NCBI GenBank assembly: GCA_050011175.1
Contig: JBEKJR010000008.1
Location: 73,610-137,609 of the forward strand
DNA length: 64,000 bases
Source of the DNA: Terracidiphilus sp.
GTDB taxonomy: Bacteria > Acidobacteriota > Terriglobia > Terriglobales > Acidobacteriaceae
Direction of reading: 5' to 3'
How positions within the stretch are numbered: position 1 is the stretch's first letter; each line of letters begins with the position of its first letter. A program made the translations under genes and the position numbers. The notes beneath the pieces are model-generated. The model was not told the origin of the DNA. It was given only the letters and a program-made list of their open reading frames with translations, and ran no database searches. Shown here piece by piece: positions 5,158 through 60,724 of the stretch.

Positions 5158-5272
5158 TAGAGCATTTTCACAGTTTCTGTGAGGCTGATTTTGTGGTTTC
5201 CCACCCATTTCACACAGAACGTGAAATGGATGGGGCACGGAGCTTCCTTACACTATCGGTGAAAATGCTCTA
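5158..5272. mobile_element. MITE-like element with perfect 14-bp terminal inverted repeats and an internal family A hairpin
   Basis: TAGAGCATTTTCAC ... GTGAAAATGCTCTA; near-identical copy at 12918-13066. Confidence 0.75.
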
Positions 5273-7840: not shown

Positions 7841-7903
7841 CCCGGGTTATCACCCCAACGAGCAAAAATCGCTCGTTGGGGACCCCAGGTCGCCGGGGAC
7901 CCC
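7841..7903. repeat. Family B palindromic repeat
   Basis: ccccaacgagcaaaaatcgctcgttgggg hairpin plus ggacccc repeats; related to 32270, 33114 and 58026. Confidence 0.7.
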
Positions 7904-8125
7904 GAATTAAAAAGCGCCGACCTCCAAGCCGGCATATCCTCCGCGGACTCTGATTCTACAGGTACTGCCGAGGGGTGGAGAATACCACACCCTTTTGAAC
8001 TCGTCAGCCCCTTTCACTTTATCGAAGATGGCGGCCCCATGGGAGAAAACAGGAGCTACCGGCGCACAATTTGCGTCCCGGAAACTCCTGTTTTGGGAAG
8101 ATTGACGGATGGGAGCAGCGGCCTT

Positions 8126-12917: not shown

Positions 12918-13066
12918 CAGAGCATTTGTGCAGTTTCCGTGAGGCTGATTTTGTGGTTTCCCACCCATTTCACACATTGGAATAAACCACAGGTCCTTCG
13001 ACTCGCTGCGCTCGCTCAGGAGGATGGGGCACGGAGCTTCCTTACACTATCGGCGAAAATGCTCTA
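12918..13066. mobile_element. Second MITE copy with a family C element nested in its hairpin loop
   Basis: Shares flanks with 5158-5272 and is 34 bp longer, with caggtccttcgactcgctgcgctcgctcagga inside; the right TIR supplies the TAG stop of the adjacent gene. Confidence 0.75.
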
Positions 13067-13600
13067 GCCGGGAAGCGCGGCGAAGTAATCGGCTACCTGT
13101 TGCCAGTTATCCACGCGAACAAAGCCGGTGGCGGCCAGGTTGTGGGGAGCAGAGTAGAGCAGGCCCTGGCCCTCAAAAAGAAGTAGATTTTTAGGCTGGT
13201 CGTCGATGAGATAGTCGGCGCGAAGGATGGACTTGTCTCCGCAGAAGACGTAGTGACTGGGCGGAATGAAGGGGAAGTGGCGCTGCAGCCAGCGGAACTT
13301 GGAGCCGAGGGAGTTGGGGACAGCCATGGCCTGGGTGGCGATGAAGATTTCAAAGCGGCCAGATAGCTGGCGGAGCACCTCCTGAGAGCCGGGCATGAGG
13401 GCGAGATCCTCGAAAAAATCCTCGGCGTCGAGGAAGGCACGAAGCTGCTGCTGGCGGTCAGCGGGAGTGATCTCCCACAGGCCCTTGCCGGCCAGATCCT
13501 GGGGCGTGACGTCTTCATCGAAGGTCTGGTTGTAGCGGCGGAGGTATTCGGCGAGGGTATCCGCCATGACTTCATCCATGTCCACGCAGATGCGTTGCAC
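13064..13600 (-). CDS. 5'(3')-deoxyribonucleotidase, NT5C-type HAD family
   Basis: DMDEVMAD motif I, YVFCGDKS and ADYLIDD motifs. Confidence 0.9.
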   Translation of the reverse strand: MQRICVDMDEVMADTLAEYLRRYNQTFDEDVTPQDLAGKGLWEITPADRQQQLRAFLDAEDFFEDLALMPGSQEVLRQLSGRFEIFIATQAMAVPNSLGSKFRWLQRHFPFIPPSHYVFCGDKSILRADYLIDDQPKNLLLFEGQGLLYSAPHNLAATGFVRVDNWQQVADYFAALPG

Positions 13601-16736: not shown

Positions 16737-17645
16737 ATGGACCCACTTTATATGATTCTGCTGGGAGCCGCGGCTCTCATCGTTCTAATTCTGATACTGG
16801 GAAGCTTTTTCACCGTGAACACGGCGCAGGTGGCCGTTATCACGCGCTTCGGCAAGTTTCTCCGCGTCGCCGATCCAGGCCTGAACTGGAAGCTCCCATT
16901 CTTCGACACCGTGGCGGGCGTCGTGAGCCTGCGCGTCAACCAGATTTCGCTGACCATGGAGACTAAAACCAAGGACAACGTCTTCGTCACCATTCCCATC
17001 TCGGTGCAAAACCGCGTGCGCCCGGAAAAGGTTTTTGACGCTTACTACAAGTTGTCCGATCCAACGGCGCAGATACAGTCCTACGTGGAACAGGTGATTC
17101 TGGGCCACGTGCCGGGGATGACGCTGGATGAGGTCTTTGCCTCGCAATCATCGATTGCCGCGGCGGTGAAGCAGGAGCTGGACGCGGACATGGCCACCTT
17201 CGGCTTTGAGATCGTGAACGTGCTGGTGACCGACATCATTCCCGACCAGAAGGTGAAGTCGGCGATGAACGACATCAACGCGGCGCAACGCGAGCAGGTG
17301 GCGGCCAACGCGCGCGGCGAGGCGGAGAAGATTCTGGTGGTGAAGAAGGCCGAGGCCGAGGCGGAGAGCAAGGCTCTGCAAGGCCAGGGCATCGCCAATC
17401 AGCGCAAGGCCATCATCGAAGGCTTGCGGTCCTCTATCGAGCAGTTCCAGCAGGCCGTGGAAGGCACGTCGTCGCGAGAGGTCATGCAGTTAGTGCTGGT
17501 GACGCAGTACTTCGACACGCTGAAGTCGATTGGTGAGAGCGACAAGACCAACACGCTGTTTCTGTCGCACACTCCGGGGGCGGTGAAGGAGGTCGCGGAG
17601 CAGATCATGGAGTCGATGCTGGTGGCGGAGCGGGCGAAGGGATGA
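16737..17645 (+). CDS. SPFH/band-7 protein
   Basis: RFGKFLRVADPGL, TKTKDNVFV, AMNDINAAQRE and QYFDTL motifs. Confidence 0.93.
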   Translation: MDPLYMILLGAAALIVLILILGSFFTVNTAQVAVITRFGKFLRVADPGLNWKLPFFDTVAGVVSLRVNQISLTMETKTKDNVFVTIPISVQNRVRPEKVFDAYYKLSDPTAQIQSYVEQVILGHVPGMTLDEVFASQSSIAAAVKQELDADMATFGFEIVNVLVTDIIPDQKVKSAMNDINAAQREQVAANARGEAEKILVVKKAEAEAESKALQGQGIANQRKAIIEGLRSSIEQFQQAVEGTSSREVMQLVLVTQYFDTLKSIGESDKTNTLFLSHTPGAVKEVAEQIMESMLVAERAKG

Positions 17646-17654
17646 TGGAGGTAC

Positions 17655-17702
17655 GGGTTTCCCATCCTTTTGCCGGAAAATAGGCAAAAGGATGGGAAAC
17701 CC
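17655..17702. repeat. Family A-like perfect hairpin, possibly a terminator
   Basis: gggtttcccatccttttgcc...ggcaaaaggatgggaaaccc. Confidence 0.7.
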
Positions 17703-25222: not shown

Positions 25223-25315
25223 CGCTTGCGCGCCATAAATCGCTTGCGCGCCATAAATATTGTGGTTTCCCACCCATTCCGCAAAGTACGCAGAATGGAT
25301 GGGGCACGGAGCTTT
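25223..25315. repeat. 18-bp tandem duplication followed by a family A hairpin
   Basis: cgcttgcgcgccataaat twice, then tgtggtttcccacccattc...gaatggatggggcacggagc. Confidence 0.75.
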
Positions 25316-26162: not shown

Positions 26163-26786
26163 TCATCGCGGCAGATTCACAAATGCGGCCACGAGCGGCC
26201 GCAGAAGGAGCAGGCTGAGGTAAAGCAACAGAGCCCCTATGCCTGCATTGTACTCGCGATGCTGGAGATAGAGCGACAGGGAGAAATGCCCCTTGTCGGG
26301 TTGACCGCCGGAGAGACGAGCCGGAGATAGCCTTGGAATCAGGCGCGGCACCTGTTGGCAATAGTCGTCGAAAGCGGGGAAAGCAGCGCGCAGAAAGCTC
26401 TCCTCGGAGGCTATGACGGGCACATAAATGGCCGCAAAACCAAGGGCGAGCACCAGCGCCACAAGCCAACTGAGCAACGCCAGGGCAAAACCGGCGGCGA
26501 TCAGCATGGAGCCCAGATAGAGCGGGTTACGGGTGTGGGCGTAAGGGCCGGTCACGGTGAGTTCGCGATTCTTTTTCACGACGCTGGCGGCGTAGGCTCG
26601 CAAAGCAAGGCCGGGCAGCACCAGCGCCAGGCTCCAGGCCACGGCAGCCAGCCGGGGCGCATGGCGGAGAAGCTCAAAAAGATAAAGCGCCGCAGTGAGA
26701 AAGCCCAACGGGACGCGGATGCGCCGGGCTACCTTCTGCCAGCGGGCGATCCAGTCGGGTTGCGATGCGGCGGTGGGCCTGGTCAT
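26163..26786 (-). CDS. ICMT/PEMT-family membrane methyltransferase
   Basis: LTVTGPYAHTRNPLYLGS and SEESFL motifs. Confidence 0.85.
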   Translation of the reverse strand: MTRPTAASQPDWIARWQKVARRIRVPLGFLTAALYLFELLRHAPRLAAVAWSLALVLPGLALRAYAASVVKKNRELTVTGPYAHTRNPLYLGSMLIAAGFALALLSWLVALVLALGFAAIYVPVIASEESFLRAAFPAFDDYCQQVPRLIPRLSPARLSGGQPDKGHFSLSLYLQHREYNAGIGALLLYLSLLLLRPLVAAFVNLPR

Positions 26787-27859
26787 GAGGCTGATTCAGG
26801 ATAAAGCAAGGCGTCGGCGGCGCGCAGGACGTCGGCGGGCTGGATGGTGAGCAAGCCGGACTCCGGCGCTGCGCGACGGGTGTGGTCGCGGCGGCTTTCC
26901 GGGCTGCGCAGGACGATAAAACGCATGCCGAAGGGGCCGTTGCGGCTGGGGTCGGTGGGTCCATAGATGCCCACCACCGGGCGGCCGAGCGCGCAGGCCA
27001 GGTGGAGCGGGCCGGTGTCTCCGGCAATGGCCAGAGCAATGCGGCGGGTGAGGGCGATGAGCTGGGGCAGCGTGCAGGCCAGCGGAATGGCCGCGCCGCC
27101 GGTGGCGCGAATAATGACTTCGGCGAGCAATTCTTCGCCGGGGCCAATGTTGATGAGCACGTGAAAACCGCGGGCAACCAGGTTTTGCGCCACGTCGGCG
27201 TAGCGCTCAATGGGCCAGCGCTTGGCGCCCCATCCGGCGCCGGGAGTGATGAGCACAACGGTCTTGTTGGTGATGGGAGGAAGGATTTCATCGGCCCAGG
27301 CCTCTGCGACGGGGTCCACGGGCAGCCAAGGCTCGACAGGCACGAGCGCATCGCCGGCGATGGATGAGACCATTTCCACGTCCTGCTCGATGACGTGAAC
27401 GCCATGGGTGACCACGCGCTCAGAAAAAAACCAGCGTGCGGCGCGTTCGCGAGGTTCGGCCTCGCCGATCAGGCGGCGGCAACCGGCGAGACGTGCGATC
27501 AGAGCCGAACGGATGGCTCCTTGCAGGTCGATCACGGTATCGTACTTTCCGGCCCGAAGCGCGGAGCGCAAAGCCATGAATTCATTGAGAGTCTGGCGGC
27601 TGAAGGGGGCTTTACGCCACTCTTTTGTGGCGGCAAAATGCAAGTGGTCGATCAGGGGCTGAGCGGAATTCTGAGAGGTTTGACGGCCGGTGCTGCCTTC
27701 AGCCGCCAGCAGCGCGCGCCAACGCGGCTCGACGACCCAGTCGATGACCCAATCGGGATGGGCCTGGCGCAGCGCCGTCACTGCCGGAAGGGCGTGCAGA
27801 ATGTCGCCCATGGCGCCGAGCCGGACCACCAGCAAGCGAAAGTTGGAGTATGTCCGCAA
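26783..27859 (-). CDS. GT9 LPS heptosyltransferase (WaaC-like)
   Basis: VRLGAMGDILH, DLQGAIRS, PGAGWGAKRWP and GDTGPLHLA motifs. Confidence 0.9.
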   Translation of the reverse strand: MRTYSNFRLLVVRLGAMGDILHALPAVTALRQAHPDWVIDWVVEPRWRALLAAEGSTGRQTSQNSAQPLIDHLHFAATKEWRKAPFSRQTLNEFMALRSALRAGKYDTVIDLQGAIRSALIARLAGCRRLIGEAEPRERAARWFFSERVVTHGVHVIEQDVEMVSSIAGDALVPVEPWLPVDPVAEAWADEILPPITNKTVVLITPGAGWGAKRWPIERYADVAQNLVARGFHVLINIGPGEELLAEVIIRATGGAAIPLACTLPQLIALTRRIALAIAGDTGPLHLACALGRPVVGIYGPTDPSRNGPFGMRFIVLRSPESRRDHTRRAAPESGLLTIQPADVLRAADALLYPESAS

Positions 27860-27893: not shown

Positions 27894-29006
27894 CTAGGAC
27901 GCAAGCCGGCTCACCAGCCAGTCGATGGCGGCCTGCTGGTCCTCGATCTCGATGCGCAGACGGGCAGTCTTGAGCGGCAGGGATGCGGGGAAAAAAGAAG
28001 CGAGCTTTCCCAGGCGGACCAAATCCTTTTCGGTGGTGATGATTGCGGTGGCTCCGGCGGCGCGAGCGGCGATTGTAATCCGATCGAGGTCGCGGGCGGT
28101 GTAGCGGTGATGGTCGGAAAAGACGGTTCGGGAGACGAGGCGCAGGCCAGCGGCTTCGAGGCCGGCGAAGAACTGCTCCGGACGGGCGATGCCGCAGAAG
28201 GCGGCTACGGGGCCGCTGACTGTGGGGATTTCCATGGAGCGGCGCAGGCGCCAGACGGGGCCTTGCCAGCCCCAGATTCGCAGTTCCGCCTCCAGCTCCG
28301 GCTCGTTGGCTGGAATGGCGATGACGCCGGCGCGACGAATGGCCGAAAGCGGTTCACGCAGATTGCCGGCTGGGAGTAGCCAGTCCTGCCAGCCGCGGCT
28401 GTCGAGGAGCAGAATGTCCACGTTGCGGGCGAGCTGGCGGTGCTGGAAGCCGTCGTCGAGGAGATGAACGATAGGCGGGTGGTTCTCATCATCAGCGGTA
28501 GTCGTTTGTCGTTTCCCACCCTTTCGCCAAAAAGCAAGAAGCAGGTCCTTCGACTCCCCCTCGCTGCACTCAGGGTCGCTCAGGATGACAGGGCACGGAG
28601 CATTTGCGCGAACATCAGCTTCGGCCAGCAGGCCGGCATCGTAGCGTTGGGGAGCCACATAGACGGGAAGGCCGGTTTCGCGGGCGATCAGGAGCGGCTC
28701 ATCGCCGAATTCTTCGACGGTCCCGTCCGGGTTAACGCGGCTGGCGAGTTTGCTCTTGCGGCCGTAACCGCGGCTGAGTACGTCCACGCGCAGGCCGCGT
28801 CCGGCGAGCGCCTTGGCCAGAACGATGGTCAGCGGCGTCTTGCCCGAGCCGCCAATTGAAAGGTTGCCGACGCTGACCACCGGAAAACGGAGACGGCGGA
28901 CTGGCTCAAGCCCGCAGCGGAGCCGGAGTTCGCGCAGGGTGAGCGCCAGCCGGTAGAGCGGGACCAGCGGAATCAGCAAGCGGCGAACTGAAAAGGACTG
29001 ATTCAT
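27894..29006 (-). CDS. lpxK: Tetraacyldisaccharide 4'-kinase with an in-frame repeat-derived insertion
   Basis: SVGNLSIGGSGKTP, LSRGYG, GDEP, DDGFQH and GNLREP motifs. Confidence 0.95.
   Translation of the reverse strand: MNQSFSVRRLLIPLVPLYRLALTLRELRLRCGLEPVRRLRFPVVSVGNLSIGGSGKTPLTIVLAKALAGRGLRVDVLSRGYGRKSKLASRVNPDGTVEEFGDEPLLIARETGLPVYVAPQRYDAGLLAEADVRANAPCPVILSDPECSEGESKDLLLAFWRKGGKRQTTTADDENHPPIVHLLDDGFQHRQLARNVDILLLDSRGWQDWLLPAGNLREPLSAIRRAGVIAIPANEPELEAELRIWGWQGPVWRLRRSMEIPTVSGPVAAFCGIARPEQFFAGLEAAGLRLVSRTVFSDHHRYTARDLDRITIAARAAGATAIITTEKDLVRLGKLASFFPASLPLKTARLRIEIEDQQAAIDWLVSRLAS
28510..28602. repeat. Nested family A::C repeat inside lpxK
   Basis: tttcccaccctttcgcc...[aagaagcaggtccttcgac...gctcaggatgaca]gggcacggagc. 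Confidence 0.8.
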
Positions 29007-30331
29007 ACAAATTTTCTCGTTCTTTTCTTCTTCGACAGCAACTCCTTGATTGCTTCAACGCAGCGGTCCGTTGCTCCCGCCTGCTGCTCGAAAACCTGCC
29101 GGGCACGCGCGCCCATGGCTTTGGCAGCCTTGGGGTCTCGGAGCAAACCGATCAGGGTTGCGGCCAGCTCCTCTTTGGCGGCGATGCGAAGGGCCTGGTG
29201 GGCCAGCAAATCCTCGGTAATGGCGCGGAAGTTGGCAAAGTGGGGGCCCATCACGATGGGAACGCCGAACTGCGCCGGTTCAAGCGGGTTGTGTCCTCCG
29301 GCGGGAATCAGGCTGCCGCCGATGAAGGCCACGAGGGCCAGAGAGTAGACCGAGGCCAATTCTCCGATGGTGTCAAGCAGGACGATTGTGCCGGGCTTCA
29401 GCGGCTTGAGGGAGCTATCTGGGGCGGAGAGCCAAACGGAGCGCTTAACCCAGGAAAAGCCGGATTTTTCCAGCAGCGCGGTCACCGCCACGAAACGCTC
29501 CGGATGGCGGGGCGCAAGGACCATCGCCATCTTCGGATTGGCCTGGAGCAGGCGCGGCCAGGCTTCGAGAAGCGCGGCCTCCTCGCCGTAAAGCGTGCTT
29601 CCGGCGACGATAAGGCGCAGATTGCGCGACAACTTCTTTAACTGACGAGTGGCGTCAGTTTCGCTCGCGGAGCGCACGTCAAATTTGAGGTTACCGGCGG
29701 ACGTAACGCGCTTCGGCGGGCAGCCGATGGCTTTGAGGCGAGCTGCGTCTGATTCGCTTTGGGCCAGCACCTGGCTTAACCGGCTGAGGAAAGGCTGCCA
29801 CAACCAGCGCAACCGCCGGTAGCGCGGCCAGGAGCGGTCAGAGATGCGCGCATTGACGACGGCCACGGGGATTTTGCGCCGATAACAGCCGCTGAGCAGA
29901 TTGGGCCAGAACTCGGTTTCTGCCAGTACGAAGAGGCGCGGCTGGAGGGCGTTAAGCCAGGCACGAACCGCCCAAGGCAGATCCAGCGGGCAATAGAAGA
30001 CGCGGTTGGCGCCAAAGCGCTCGCGGGCCAGCGCCTGGCCGGTGCGAGTGGTGGTGGAGAGGACGACAAATGATTTAGGCAGAGCGGCGTCCAGCGTTTT
30101 GACTAGGCGGCTGACGGCCAGAACCTCGCCGACGGAGACGGCATGAATCCAGATGAGAGGGCGTTCACGGTTCAATCCGGCAAGCTGCTTGCGGAGCCGG
30201 GAGGGGATGAGTCCCAGGCGTTCCAGCAGCCCCTGGCGGTACTTTTTTGTAGTGGCCATGCGGAAGAGCCACCAGGGCGCGCCCACGACCAGAACCACGA
30301 GCAAAGCCAGATTGTAGAAAAGCAGGATCAT
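29003..30331 (-). CDS. waaA: Kdo transferase
   Basis: IWIHAVSVGE, ETEFWPNL, GNLKFD, LAPRHPERF and GGHNPLEPA motifs. Confidence 0.96.
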   Translation of the reverse strand: MILLFYNLALLVVLVVGAPWWLFRMATTKKYRQGLLERLGLIPSRLRKQLAGLNRERPLIWIHAVSVGEVLAVSRLVKTLDAALPKSFVVLSTTTRTGQALARERFGANRVFYCPLDLPWAVRAWLNALQPRLFVLAETEFWPNLLSGCYRRKIPVAVVNARISDRSWPRYRRLRWLWQPFLSRLSQVLAQSESDAARLKAIGCPPKRVTSAGNLKFDVRSASETDATRQLKKLSRNLRLIVAGSTLYGEEAALLEAWPRLLQANPKMAMVLAPRHPERFVAVTALLEKSGFSWVKRSVWLSAPDSSLKPLKPGTIVLLDTIGELASVYSLALVAFIGGSLIPAGGHNPLEPAQFGVPIVMGPHFANFRAITEDLLAHQALRIAAKEELAATLIGLLRDPKAAKAMGARARQVFEQQAGATDRCVEAIKELLSKKKRTRKFV

Positions 30332-32269: not shown

Positions 32270-32435
32270 CCGGGATCCCCGGCGACTCGGGGTCCCCAAC
32301 GACCGGGGCCCCCAGGAAGCGAACTCTGCTTCTTGGGGTGGTAGCGAGCGATTTTTGCTCGTTGGGGGGAGGGAAGCGATCTTTGCTCAGAGGGGTGAGG
32401 GGACAGCTTTCGTCCGTGGGGTGGCCGGGCGAAGG
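32270..32435. repeat. Family B composite repeat, left of the vapBC-like pair
   Basis: About 90 bp nearly identical to 33175-33267. Confidence 0.8.
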
Positions 32436-32469: not shown

Positions 32470-32703
32470 ATGCAGGTTCTGGTCAACATCCCGGATGAAC
32501 TGGCGGCGCAGCTCCAGGCGCGCGGTCTTGTTCTCGAAGCCTGTCTGCGCGATCTGATGGAAGAGAAGTTCTCCCAGGAGCCGGTTCGAGAGGAGCGGCG
32601 GCGTCAGGCAGTTGAGGCCATGCGCGGCTTTGCCGTGAAGCATGGCGCAACGCTGGGCGGGCTCGACCTCAAGAGCATGGTGCATGAAGGGCACAAATAC
32701 TGA
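32470..32703 (+). CDS. Putative antitoxin
   Basis: 77 aa, MQVLVNIPDEL...; its stop overlaps the PIN start. Confidence 0.75.
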   Translation: MQVLVNIPDELAAQLQARGLVLEACLRDLMEEKFSQEPVREERRRQAVEAMRGFAVKHGATLGGLDLKSMVHEGHKY

Positions 32704-33113
32704 TGCCGTTCGTTCTTGATGCTTCGATGACTATGAGCTGGTGTTTTGCCGATGAAAGCACACCCTACAGTCGCCGGGTGTTAGACTCGCTTCTCGATTC
32801 TTATGCCGAAGTACCCGCGCTGTGGCCTTTCGAGATTGCCAACGTATTGGCCGTCAGCGAGAAGAGGCTGCGGCTCACGAAAGCGGCCTCCGTCGAGTTT
32901 CTGCAAACCCTCTCCGGCCTCGATATTCGCATCGACAGATCATTTCCTGAGTTGGACGGCAAGGTTTTGCTGCCCTTGGTCTGGCGTCATGGCCTGACGG
33001 CCTATGATGCGGCCTATCTGGAATTAGCCAAGCGCAAGGGATTGCCGCTGGCTACCTTCGATAAAGAATTGATCGCTGCCGCCTCGCTCGAAGGAGTCAC
33101 ATTGGTTGGGTAG
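32703..33113 (+). CDS. VapC-like PIN toxin
   Basis: FVLDASM, LWPFEIANVL, LTAYDAAYLELA and LATFD motifs. Confidence 0.9.
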   Translation: MPFVLDASMTMSWCFADESTPYSRRVLDSLLDSYAEVPALWPFEIANVLAVSEKRLRLTKAASVEFLQTLSGLDIRIDRSFPELDGKVLLPLVWRHGLTAYDAAYLELAKRKGLPLATFDKELIAAASLEGVTLVG

Positions 33114-33270
33114 CCCGGGTGCCTGGGTGCCGATCCTTCGCTTTGCCGTGGTCCCCACGGACTCGGGGTCCCCGGCGAGCGATCTTTGCTCGTTGGGGTG
33201 AGGAAAGCGATCTTTGCTCGCACAGGTGAAGGGACAGCTCTTCGTCCGTGGGGTGGCCGGGCGAAGGCTG
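33114..33270. repeat. Family B composite repeat, right of the vapBC-like pair
   Basis: Direct repeat of 32345-32435. Confidence 0.8.
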
Positions 33271-39575: not shown

Positions 39576-39650
39576 GGCCAGATAGCTCAGTGGTAGAGCG
39601 CGGCCCTGAAAAGGCCGGCGTCGGCGGTTCAATCCCGTCTCTGGCCACCA
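39576..39650 (+). tRNA. tRNA-Phe(GAA)
   Basis: GGCCAGA/TCTGGCC acceptor stem, CTGAAAA anticodon loop, GGTTCAATCC T-loop, encoded CCA. Confidence 0.95.
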
Positions 39651-39686: not shown

Positions 39687-39771
39687 GTCGGGATGGCGGA
39701 ACTGGCAAACGCAGCGGACTCAAAATCCGCCGGCCCTCGCGGCCATGGGGTCTCGCCCCCTCCCGGCACCA
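39687..39771 (+). tRNA. tRNA-Leu(CAA) with a shortened, non-canonical T-arm (possible pseudo-tRNA)
   Basis: Acceptor stem, D-arm, CTCAAAA loop, long variable arm and CCA are intact; the T-arm reads GGGG-TCTCG-CCCCC and lacks TTCG. Confidence 0.75.
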
Positions 39772-44102: not shown

Positions 44103-44171
44103 GAGGGGCACCCGGGTTTCGTGGAATCCCACCCTGGCCGCAAAATTGCAAGAAGCAAGTCCTTCGACTGC
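44103..44171. repeat. Partial nested family A::C repeat
   Basis: cccaccct...aagaagcaagtccttcgac, the same junction as in lpxK. Confidence 0.6.
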
Positions 44172-48316: not shown

Positions 48317-48340
48317 TCGTGGCTGGCGGACGGCAACAGA

Positions 48341-48410
48341 CAAAAACAACCGCAGGTCCTTCGACTGCGTTTGGTGCATCAACGCACCAAATTCCGCTCA
48401 GGATGACAGC
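48341..48410. repeat. Free-standing family C element
   Basis: gcaggtccttcgactgcg...gctcaggatgaca. Confidence 0.75.
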
Positions 48411-58025: not shown

Positions 58026-58150
58026 TTTACCACCCCAGCGACATGACTCGTCTTACCACCCCAGGAAGCAAAGCTCGCTTCCTGGGACCTTGTCGCCGGA
58101 ACCCGGCAATCACCCCAGCGAAAAAGACCAGTCTCCGGGGGGTCCAGGAG
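58026..58150. repeat. Family B repeat fragments
   Basis: ccaccccaggaagcaaagctcgcttcctggg resembles the reverse complement of 32311-32341. Confidence 0.6.
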
Positions 58151-59943: not shown

Positions 59944-60036
59944 TAGGACAGGCGGCAGGTGAAACCGGTTGCATAATTTCAAAAAAAGAGCGATTTCAAG
60001 AGAAAATGCAACCAGAGCGGGAGAGAGCGGGTCATA
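59944..60036. promoter_or_regulatory. Back-to-back ECF promoters TGCAACC-N17-GTC(A/C)TA
   Basis: Minus strand 59973-59944 and plus strand 60007-60036. Confidence 0.7.
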
Positions 60037-60061
60037 CTATCCGCAGAGGCATGACCTCAGG

Positions 60062-60724
60062 ATGAAAACCGCAACCAGCGCCGACAACAACCAGGCCGAC
60101 CTTGCGGACGTTGCGCGCGTGCTGGACGGCGATGTGCAGGCCTTCGAGGGAATCGTTCGCCGCTGGCAGGGACCGCTCGTTAACATGGCCTGGCGTTACT
60201 GCCGCGATCGCGGGCGCGCCGAGGAGATGGCCCAGGAGGCTTTTCTGCGCGCCTGGCGAGGGTTGAGCCGCTGGCGGCGGGAGTCGAGTTTTTCCACCTG
60301 GCTGTTCGCGCTTGCGGCCAACGTCTATCGCACAGAATTGAAGCGATTCCCCACAGAGACACTGCCTCTGGAGGCTGCGCCCGAGCCGGCCGGCCCGGCC
60401 ACACAGCACAATGAAATGGCCGCGCAGTTGAGCCACGATGCGGTGCGACGGGCCGTTCTAACGCTGCCTCTGCGCTACCGCGAACCGGTGGTTCTCTTCT
60501 ATTTTCACGAGATGGACGTGGCCGCGGCAGCGCGCACGCTGGGGATGCCGGAAGGAACGTTGAAGGCTCGCCTCTCCCGGGCGCGGGAGCTGTTGCGACA
60601 GCGATTTCCGAAGCTGGAAGAGGAGCATGATTCCCACCCATCGCAAAGAACGCGATGGATGGGGCACCAACATTTCGGTCAGGATGAAATAACTGAAGAC
60701 ATAGGAAAGGAGGCCGCACGATGA
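60062..60724 (+). CDS. ECF sigma-70 factor
   Basis: AEEMAQEAFLRAW, FSTWLF and LGMPEGTLKARLSRAR motifs. Confidence 0.93.
   Translation: MKTATSADNNQADLADVARVLDGDVQAFEGIVRRWQGPLVNMAWRYCRDRGRAEEMAQEAFLRAWRGLSRWRRESSFSTWLFALAANVYRTELKRFPTETLPLEAAPEPAGPATQHNEMAAQLSHDAVRRAVLTLPLRYREPVVLFYFHEMDVAAAARTLGMPEGTLKARLSRARELLRQRFPKLEEEHDSHPSQRTRWMGHQHFGQDEITEDIGKEAAR
60633..60668. repeat. Family A hairpin in frame in the sigma C-terminal tail
   Basis: cccacccatcgcaaagaacgcgatggatggggcacc. Confidence 0.8.

Follow-up and report, generated by a model that had tools for sequence, protein, structure and literature searches.

In a stretch of Terracidiphilus DNA, the gene lpxK, which encodes tetraacyldisaccharide 4'-kinase, holds a composite of two dispersed non-coding repeats, here named family A and family C, that is probably read by the ribosome as a tolerated loop of the enzyme. 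The stretch, referred to as the window, comprises 64,000 nucleotides (nt) of contig JBEKJR010000008.1 (assembly GCA_050011175.1). According to the proposed mechanism, a 63-nt hairpin of family A would have inserted into the codons for a surface loop of natural variability, located between the RYDAGLLAE helix and the strand ending in the two Walker-B aspartates (DD). A family C element would then have landed in the loop of the resident A hairpin, in the same orientation as in every nested copy, and loss of the right inner arm of A would have left a stop-free, frame-preserving insert of 108 nt. This insert would be translated as a disordered loop of 36 residues at the start of the Walker-B strand, opposite the catalytic DD, and because of this position the enzyme would still work and the allele would be maintained. 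We infer this order of events as well as the mobilising machinery, for which a transposase targeting hairpins in single-stranded form seems most plausible.

The segment from RYDAG to DDGFQH comprises 69 amino acids in the window LpxK versus 33 in insert-free orthologues, i.e., 36 extra residues; the LpxK of Aquifex aeolicus has merely about four residues at the corresponding loop. The boundaries of the insert are accurate to about 3 nt, with the 36 codons placed at 28497-28604. An earlier, sequence-only reading of this DNA had assigned about 40 extra residues to 28470-28615. The extra residues are present and in frame, but they number 36, and that interval encloses native loop codons in addition to the insert. 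The same reading placed C in the loop of an A hairpin, and C indeed occupies the loop position, with some orthologues carrying A alone and others an empty loop; the right arm of A is truncated, however, and the composite is not an intact nested palindrome. The parts of the insert are given in Table 1. The A-rich leader is probably a leftover of the A loop plus the leader of C. The centre of C in this insert was also found at other loci of peat metagenome runs with different flanks, and the truncated 3' junction of A recurs in L002, L033 and L034 (L-numbers denote fetched related loci or contigs, P-numbers the LpxK sequences used in the tree described below). With the right inner arm of A lost, the copy in lpxK has become a poor palindrome. 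An RNA structure in the lpxK mRNA was dropped as an explanation, since the composite folds no better than shuffled sequence on either strand (z = +1.2 and +2.3) and no inverted repeat matching the A arms was found locally at the insert.

Alignment of LpxK orthologues, a check proposed with the sequence-only reading, revealed three DNA-level states at one site in close orthologues. The loop is empty in L003, L007, L156 and L158; it holds just an intact A hairpin, which adds 63 nt and gives NAPCPILSRSMRKGGKPQTTT, in L001, L005, L155 and L159-L161; and it holds A with C nested in it (hereafter A[C], a further +45 nt) in the window, L002, L033 and L034. The A-only L001 is an 84%-identical orthologue with the hairpin at the insert site of the window. 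Because junctions, leader and centre are shared by all four A[C] alleles, with identical junctions throughout, these alleles are of single origin. Orthologues with the peptide all carry the repeat DNA too and hence do not refute the sequence-only reading, against which the peptide would have counted where repeat homology is absent. Among the 113 nearest classifiable LpxK sequences, which were ranked by similarity to the insert-bearing query so that the proportions are biased upward, the loop is empty in 75 and about one third bear a repeat-derived insert. Thirteen have A, nine have an A hairpin read in the other frame (GAPSLRVLCARVGN...), four have A[C], one of them with a further A hairpin, and 11 have a third family of dispersed repeats (GQGFSP...ALAPEV; GGGCTTTAGCCCC palindromes), in some cases with more inserts nested in it; one has a long Pro/Ala-rich segment. 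The A hairpin is hence read in two frames among the orthologues, giving APCPILSRSMRKGGKPQ and GAPSLRVLCARVGN. The inserts nested in the third family comprise 20-50 residues (L016 from about 10358 onward, P0040, P0057, P0058, P0107, P0119), so that A and C are not the only elements involved in nesting. In L029 and P0083, the loop is a Pro/Ala/Gln-rich low-complexity segment of 90-100 residues without a recognisable repeat element. In the metagenome runs X1 and X3, a short contig joins the conserved sides of 28462-28684 via 89 unrelated letters instead of 221, which is consistent with a co-occurring relative with a short loop. On the contig of L034, the allele with the further A hairpin, the neighbouring kdtA, PTPS and helicase genes are split into pieces and lpxK itself is intact; the split genes suggest frameshift errors of long-read assembly.

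Judged from its sequence, lpxK with the insert is very probably functional, because the motifs are intact, the ratio of nonsynonymous to synonymous substitution rates (dN/dS) in the flanks outside the loop is 0.22-0.41, insert-bearing allele pairs included, and independent peat metagenomes contain identical sequence, with a 701-nt stretch showing zero differences in contigs of separate peat runs. The lpxK stretch is essentially complete in at least nine peat or wetland metagenome runs, and its nearest genomic relatives are Terracidiphilus-like Acidobacteriaceae metagenome-assembled genomes (MAGs) from peat or bog with at most 74% identity. That lpxK is a pseudogene, or the insertion an assembly artefact, is highly improbable: apart from the fact that repeat DNA lies in a gene nothing points to it, and it is contradicted by the open frame with all motifs, by purifying selection between insert-bearing alleles (dN/dS 0.2-0.4), by identical contigs from several independent runs and studies and by the canonical operon position. 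The Pfam model PF02606 matches the window LpxK over the whole protein (E = 9.8e-81), with the match split in two by the insert. The best solved relative by sequence is A. aeolicus LpxK (PDB 4ehw/4ehx, E = 1e-34). An AlphaFold model (predicted TM score 0.80) has the two-domain LpxK fold, and its top six Foldseek matches are all A. aeolicus LpxK (4lkv/4ehx; E = 1e-21, target-normalised TM score 0.76-0.80). The P-loop GGSGKT (residues 52-57), GDEP (101-104) and LLDDGFQH (182-189) are invariant across the orthologue alignment A2, as are the residues K56/T57, D102/E103, D184/D185 and H189, equivalent to catalytic residues whose roles were described for the Aquifex enzyme (PMC6286764). Modelling of the loop position, likewise suggested with the sequence-only reading, gave pLDDT values below 50 for residues 136-174, flanked by a helix modelled with confidence (121-134) and by the Walker-B strand (179-184). 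The insert is thus modelled as a disordered loop, which by P-loop topology would sit at the end of the Walker-B strand distal to the active site. A word-index protein search with a 42-residue insert peptide returned no candidates, and a HMMER search with the 36-residue peptide against 1.84 billion representatives returned two matches at E <= 1e-3, this query being too short for a census.

Family A is represented by 48 distinct copies in 1.35 megabases of related DNA. It has the tag TTTGTGG, CCCACCC/GGATGGGG as its outer stem, an inner stem, a loop of AAAGAAC type and the tail CACGGAGC or CACCC, with a stem-loop of 34-45 nt. Across the 48 copies the inner stems have a mean of 5.0 contiguous pairs versus 0.45 in shuffled sequence, and their sequence varies from copy to copy yet stays self-complementary, i.e., it covaries. 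The modal 5' flank is TTTGTGGTTT, in which GTGG is set off from the stem by TTT. In the window, where most copies are intergenic, GTTTCCCACCC occurs eight times with at most one mismatch versus 1.06 expected, a number reached by none of 100 shuffles. The copies at 5196 and 12956 each lie within an outer palindrome, TAGAGCATTTTCAC...GTGAAAATGCTCTA, and the flanks of the two agree to 93-98%. As the A hairpin at 12956 is enclosed in the larger palindrome at 12919-13069, three levels are nested there (outer palindrome, A, C). The hairpin at 60629-60670, located beyond sigma region 4, seems to contribute the C-terminal tail, along with the stop codon, of an open reading frame (ORF) for an extracytoplasmic function (ECF) sigma factor. 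A near-perfect 46-nt palindrome, GGTTTCCCATCCTTTTGCC...GGCAAAAGGATGGGAAACC, lies at 17656-17701 just past an ORF ending at 17645; it is A-like with CCCATCC on both arms. Rfam 15 holds no model for family A or C and gave nothing credible over 28300-28800 at E values up to 10; its sole matches in the window at gathering score are two tRNA genes (39576-39647 and 39687-39768).

Family C has an A-rich leader followed by the box AGGTCCTTCGACTC, a centre that varies and a second box, CGCTCAGGATGACA, and it is abundant in soil and peat metagenomes. In many copies the centre forms its own hairpin, and in some it houses another repeat. The 14-nt C box was found at 120 or more metagenome loci, with about 85 genuine elements among the matches listed; in the window, AGGTCCTTCGACTC occurs four times with at most two mismatches versus 0.54 expected, which none of 100 shuffles reached. 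A hammerhead-like reading of the boxes (CUGAGCG...CGAAG, reverse strand) was dropped as the core positions misfit and Rfam gave no match. The fetched DNA contains 121 copies of C, about 100 of them independent, and 12 independent nestings of C in A were found among the latter, where about 0.1 is expected by chance given that A hairpins cover about 0.1% of this DNA. The nested copies are those at window positions 12956 and 44128, that of the lpxK lineage, and those in L016, L027, L071, L078, L082, L087, L112, L123 and L124. All 12 have C in one orientation relative to A, and in several (L016, L071, L078, L123, L124) both A arms are intact with C exactly in the loop. A is a preferred and not a required target of C, because about 90% of the C copies are solo and about 10% are nested. 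The sequence-only reading had named intergenic nested copies at about 12954 and 44128 and proposed that C targets A. The first is real and has a C-less paralogue in the same outer palindrome; at the second, the 5' arm of A (CCCACCC at 44128-44134) and the 5' box of C (44157-44170) are present, but no C 3' box or A 3' arm was recognisable at 44121-44170. The targeting is borne out as a preference, and the case of lpxK is one of many in this lineage.

It is rather unlikely, though worth weighing, that A[C] arrived in lpxK ready-made, or that a resident A in lpxK was converted from another genomic A[C] via the A ends, with the reverse route having restored plain A in L001. The leader form CAAGAAGCA is common to most nested C copies and absent from most solo ones, suggesting an A[C] subfamily, and the four lpxK alleles have identical junctions despite distant flanks. 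However, the nested copies differ in the inner stem of A (TTTCGCC, TGGCCGC, ATTCGCC, ATTTCAC, TTGCCG), as expected if C entered separate resident A hairpins, and the window pair 5196 (empty) and 12956 (filled) shares outer palindrome, A inner stem and near-identical surroundings, without and with C.

Table 1. Coordinates of lpxK, its neighbours and the repeat elements (window positions unless a locus is named)
Feature	Position	Strand	Basis or remark
lpxK coding sequence (tetraacyldisaccharide 4'-kinase), 370 amino acids	27894..29006	-	ORF list and Pfam PF02606
In-frame insertion, 108 nt, residues 135-170, peptide NAPCPVILSDPECSEGESKDLLLAFWRKGGKRQTTT	28496..28604	-	DNA comparison of empty, A-only and A[C] alleles
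Predicted junction peptides of the insert: ANAPCPVILSDPECSEGESK, DLLLAFWR, QTTTADDENHPPIVHLLDDGFQHR			
Family A 5' half TTTGTCGTTTCCCACCCTTTCGCC: TTTGTCG tag, outer arm CCCACCC, inner arm TTTCGCC	28505..28528	+	Aligned with A copies at 5196, 12956, 25265
A-rich leader AAAAAGCAAGAAGC	28529..28542	+	
Family C 5' box AGGTCCTTCGACTC	28543..28556	+	Motif scan; exact matches in at least 120 metagenome loci
Family C variable centre CCCCTCGCTGCACTCAGGGT	28557..28576	+	Recurs in L002, L034; longer variant in L033
Family C 3' box CGCTCAGGATGACA	28577..28590	+	
Family A 3' stub GGGCACGGAGCATT, lacking the right inner arm and the GGATGG of the outer arm	28591..28604	+	
Plain A hairpin, fold z = -3.1, within outer palindrome 5158-5272	5196..5243	+	C-less paralogue of the 12956 copy
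Intergenic A[C] within outer palindrome 12919-13069; C replaces A loop and right inner arm	12956..13037	+	
Plain A hairpin, intergenic	25265..25312	+	
Degenerate nested copy: A 5' arm, leader, C 5' box	44121..44170	+	
Solo C element: leader, boxes, own central hairpin; not within A	48340..48409	+	
A hairpin traversed by ECF sigma-factor ORF 59963-60724 at its 3' end	60629..60670	+	
kdtA/waaA, upstream of lpxK	29003..30331	-	Gene order kdtA-lpxK-glycosyltransferase family 9 as in insert-free relatives
Glycosyltransferase family 9 (heptosyltransferase-like), downstream of lpxK	26783..27859	-	Synteny with PF01075 neighbours in L003, L155, L156
In-frame elements in TsaD, PyrB, CCA-adding enzyme and RlmN	L064 10104-10890; L081 8589-9098; L035 8271-8304; L064 8384-8438; L072 10184-10283		

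In the window the start of lpxK overlaps the stop of kdtA by 4 nt. Further palindromic repeat clusters in direct orientation, of GGGGACCCC-type and CGAGCAAAAATCGCTCG-type, lie at 32270-32435 and 33146-33267 and flank a small ORF (32703-33113); these types are also found at 7850-7904 and 58054-58086. The small ORF was considered as a transposase candidate and set aside, as it looks by eye, without a family search, like a PIN-domain protein.

Several observations weigh against a loop that is no more than tolerated. Among the six A-only alleles, the nucleotide identity of the A hairpin is 0.84-0.96 versus 0.69-0.78 for the rest of the gene, and at third codon positions it is 0.71-1.00 versus 0.51-0.66. 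Between the A[C] alleles of the window and L034 merely 3 of 84 nt differ, while the flanks are 0.64-0.78 identical and six differences fall in the 18 nt directly upstream of the element. The element is better conserved than the gene that carries it, unlike a merely tolerated passenger. The state of the loop is polyphyletic on the LpxK tree, with an A-only allele placed within the A[C] clade. No target-site duplication is seen for A (L155 compared with L156), and no transposase was found in the window, which was not scanned for one as a whole. Finally, translation of the insert and activity of the enzyme are inferred from the gene sequence. For the other-frame hairpin, the comparison of L157 with L158 revealed a clean gain of 87 nt with an imperfect 14-nt direct repeat, GAGAACCACCAGCC / GAGAATAGTCCGCC, which is either a long target duplication or what unequal exchange of an empty with an A-type allele left behind.

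The excess of conservation may be due to nucleotide selection in place, to a recent spread bounded by the element, whether through homing-like re-insertion or through gene conversion via the repeat ends, or to conversion to the family consensus. The inner stem of the lpxK hairpin is near the modal family A sequence, and the A-only alleles show few stem changes, these without compensation. A collapse of repeats in short-read assembly is an unlikely source, as L005 and L034, whose contig names suggest long-read assembly, show the same excess. At the peptide level, the core is 82-94% identical among A-type alleles versus 67-75% for the remaining sequence. This would fit a co-option of the inserted peptide, for example of the basic RKGGKRQ aiding membrane or partner binding, as LpxK acts at the membrane interface via a basic patch (PMC6286764). 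Such a co-option is nevertheless improbable: third positions are conserved too, which places the constraint at a level other than the peptide, the insert is modelled as disordered, and most orthologues are free of it. Moreover, this DNA is used in one or the other of two frames depending on the orthologue, so that the constraint is not on the peptide.

It is a substantial possibility, although we do not favour it, that the element is not passive, i.e., that it is under selection at the nucleotide level as a DNA or RNA hairpin or as a protein-binding site in the kdtA-lpxK-glycosyltransferase operon, or that it is young and re-enters or is copied into the site by homing-like insertion or element-bounded conversion. 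This possibility is compatible with translation and overlaps with the tolerated loop. It accounts for a conservation far above that of the synonymous sites of an essential host gene, also on MAG contigs with long-read-style names, for the high identity that ends at the element edges, and for the polyphyletic distribution with well-supported sister pairs of differing state; the occurrence of the hairpin in the two frames APCPILSRSMRKGGKPQ and GAPSLRVLCARVGN likewise indicates that DNA and not peptide is kept. On the other hand, two thirds of the close orthologues are insert-free, which makes the element dispensable, the A[C] of lpxK folds no better than its shuffles, the stem changes among A-only alleles are uncompensated, and no homing enzyme or conserved target motif could be identified.

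The history of the loop was followed on a bootstrapped neighbour-joining tree of LpxK computed with the loop masked. An A-only allele (L001, P0003) lies inside the A[C] clade with 100% and 75% bootstrap, a placement that calls for loss of C and a restored hairpin, or else for transfer or conversion. The position of L001 is also what a ready-made A[C] with its reverse route would lead to. The A[C] allele P0012 pairs with the A-only P0071 (100%), the A-type P0035 pairs with the empty P0111 (100%), and one clade with 97% support combines one A, one empty and one third-family allele. A single ancient insertion followed by vertical descent is insufficient, as the bootstrapped tree and the conservation excess contradict it. 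We nevertheless regard the composite of A and C, read as a tolerated loop, as the probable explanation of the lpxK insert.

The same elements are found in other proteins. An ORF-spanning scan of the fetched loci revealed C and A in frame in the Pfam-confirmed PyrB, TsaD, CCA-adding enzyme and RlmN. In TsaD the elements are located at two loops, on two contigs and in both orientations, and in PyrB they are located in the linker between its two domains. All four stop-free frames of C were found in real proteins (CHPER...VEGP, VILS...ESKDL, RSFDS...LRMT and VLRL...AQDD).

The closest known parallel by behaviour is that of the Rickettsia palindromic elements (RPEs), short dispersed palindromic repeats described, as cited in PMC3733652, to lie in frame in functional and often essential proteins (Ogata et al. 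2000). The analogy, drawn already in the sequence-only reading, is apt: A and C are also dispersed, occur in intergenic regions too and would contribute an in-frame peptide at a structurally permissive place. In contrast to the obligate intracellular RPE hosts, the hosts of A and C are free-living soil and peat Acidobacteriaceae; given the lineage the families are presumably unrelated in sequence to RPEs, the analogy being one of behaviour and not of sequence comparison. Furthermore, A is shorter (about 50-63 nt), one family is nested in the other, several families share one LpxK loop, where two reading frames are in use, and the element is more conserved than its host gene rather than decaying. 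Repetitive extragenic palindromes (REPs) tagged with GTAG or CGTC are stem-loops of 20-40 bp that are mostly intergenic, with a minority wholly within known genes (Di Nocera et al. 2013, PMC3733652). Intragenic REP clusters can encode 43-82 residues, and different REPs occupy about the same recB site in two Xanthomonas species (PMC3733652). Like REPs, A is a short multi-copy imperfect palindrome that is mostly extragenic; unlike them, it has GTGG followed by TTT instead of GTAG or CGTC abutting the stem, and C has two conserved boxes around a variable centre rather than forming a simple palindrome. In Acidobacteria a separate group of tyrosine transposases, the TIRYTs, was reported (PMC3733652); no RAYT or TIRYT gene was found adjoining A or C, where no systematic scan of the window ORFs was made.

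Insertion sequence (IS) elements insert in REP hairpins (PMC3733652), and the IS110-family element ISPpu9 of Pseudomonas putida is described as targeting REP hairpins (PMC12288879). C too lands preferentially, and in a defined orientation, in a repeated hairpin, but it is non-coding with about 50-85 nt, so that it would need mobilisation in trans, and the nesting of about 10% of its copies is a preference and not a rule. In Coxiella burnetii, miniature inverted-repeat transposable elements, or MITEs, reportedly contribute protein segments (PMC5896051). A and C resemble MITEs as small non-autonomous repeats within coding sequence that alter proteins; they differ in that no IS-type terminal inverted repeats or clear target-site duplication were found for them, a matching IS having been sought in the fetched loci alone. 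In the literature searched, no description of families A or C was found. In-frame palindromic elements (RPEs), intragenic REPs and mobile elements in REP hairpins are already known. The present case is set apart by the occurrence in free-living Acidobacteria, the families A and C, a non-coding element targeting the loop of another in fixed orientation, the occupancy of one loop by multiple families in multiple frames, and a conservation above that of the host gene.

Palindromic elements read in frame have largely passed for an oddity of reduced intracellular genomes, and here they are found in free-living soil and peat bacteria. Public metagenomes already contain many allelic states of one site (empty, one element, nested, other frame), and their comparison can now address target choice, tolerance by the protein, and decay versus maintenance of such elements. 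In the annotation of Acidobacteria, A/C-type repeats inflate gene and domain calls and also split them, and the peptides CHPERS..., VILS...SKDL, ...LRMT and ...AQDD should be recognised by annotators as recurrent 'hypothetical' sequences. As a tentative and rather doubtful generalisation, Terriglobia-type Acidobacteria may host an active system of small non-coding elements in which C is directed, in fixed orientation, to the single-stranded loops of A hairpins, and in which both come to occupy the same loop-coding sites in essential genes (LpxK, TsaD, PyrB, RlmN, CCA-adding enzyme) time and again, by entry or by copying, and are kept there at the nucleotide level instead of decaying. If true, free-living bacteria would possess a natural source from which new protein loops keep arising, and this source would have a homing-like or selected component absent from the Rickettsia paradigm.

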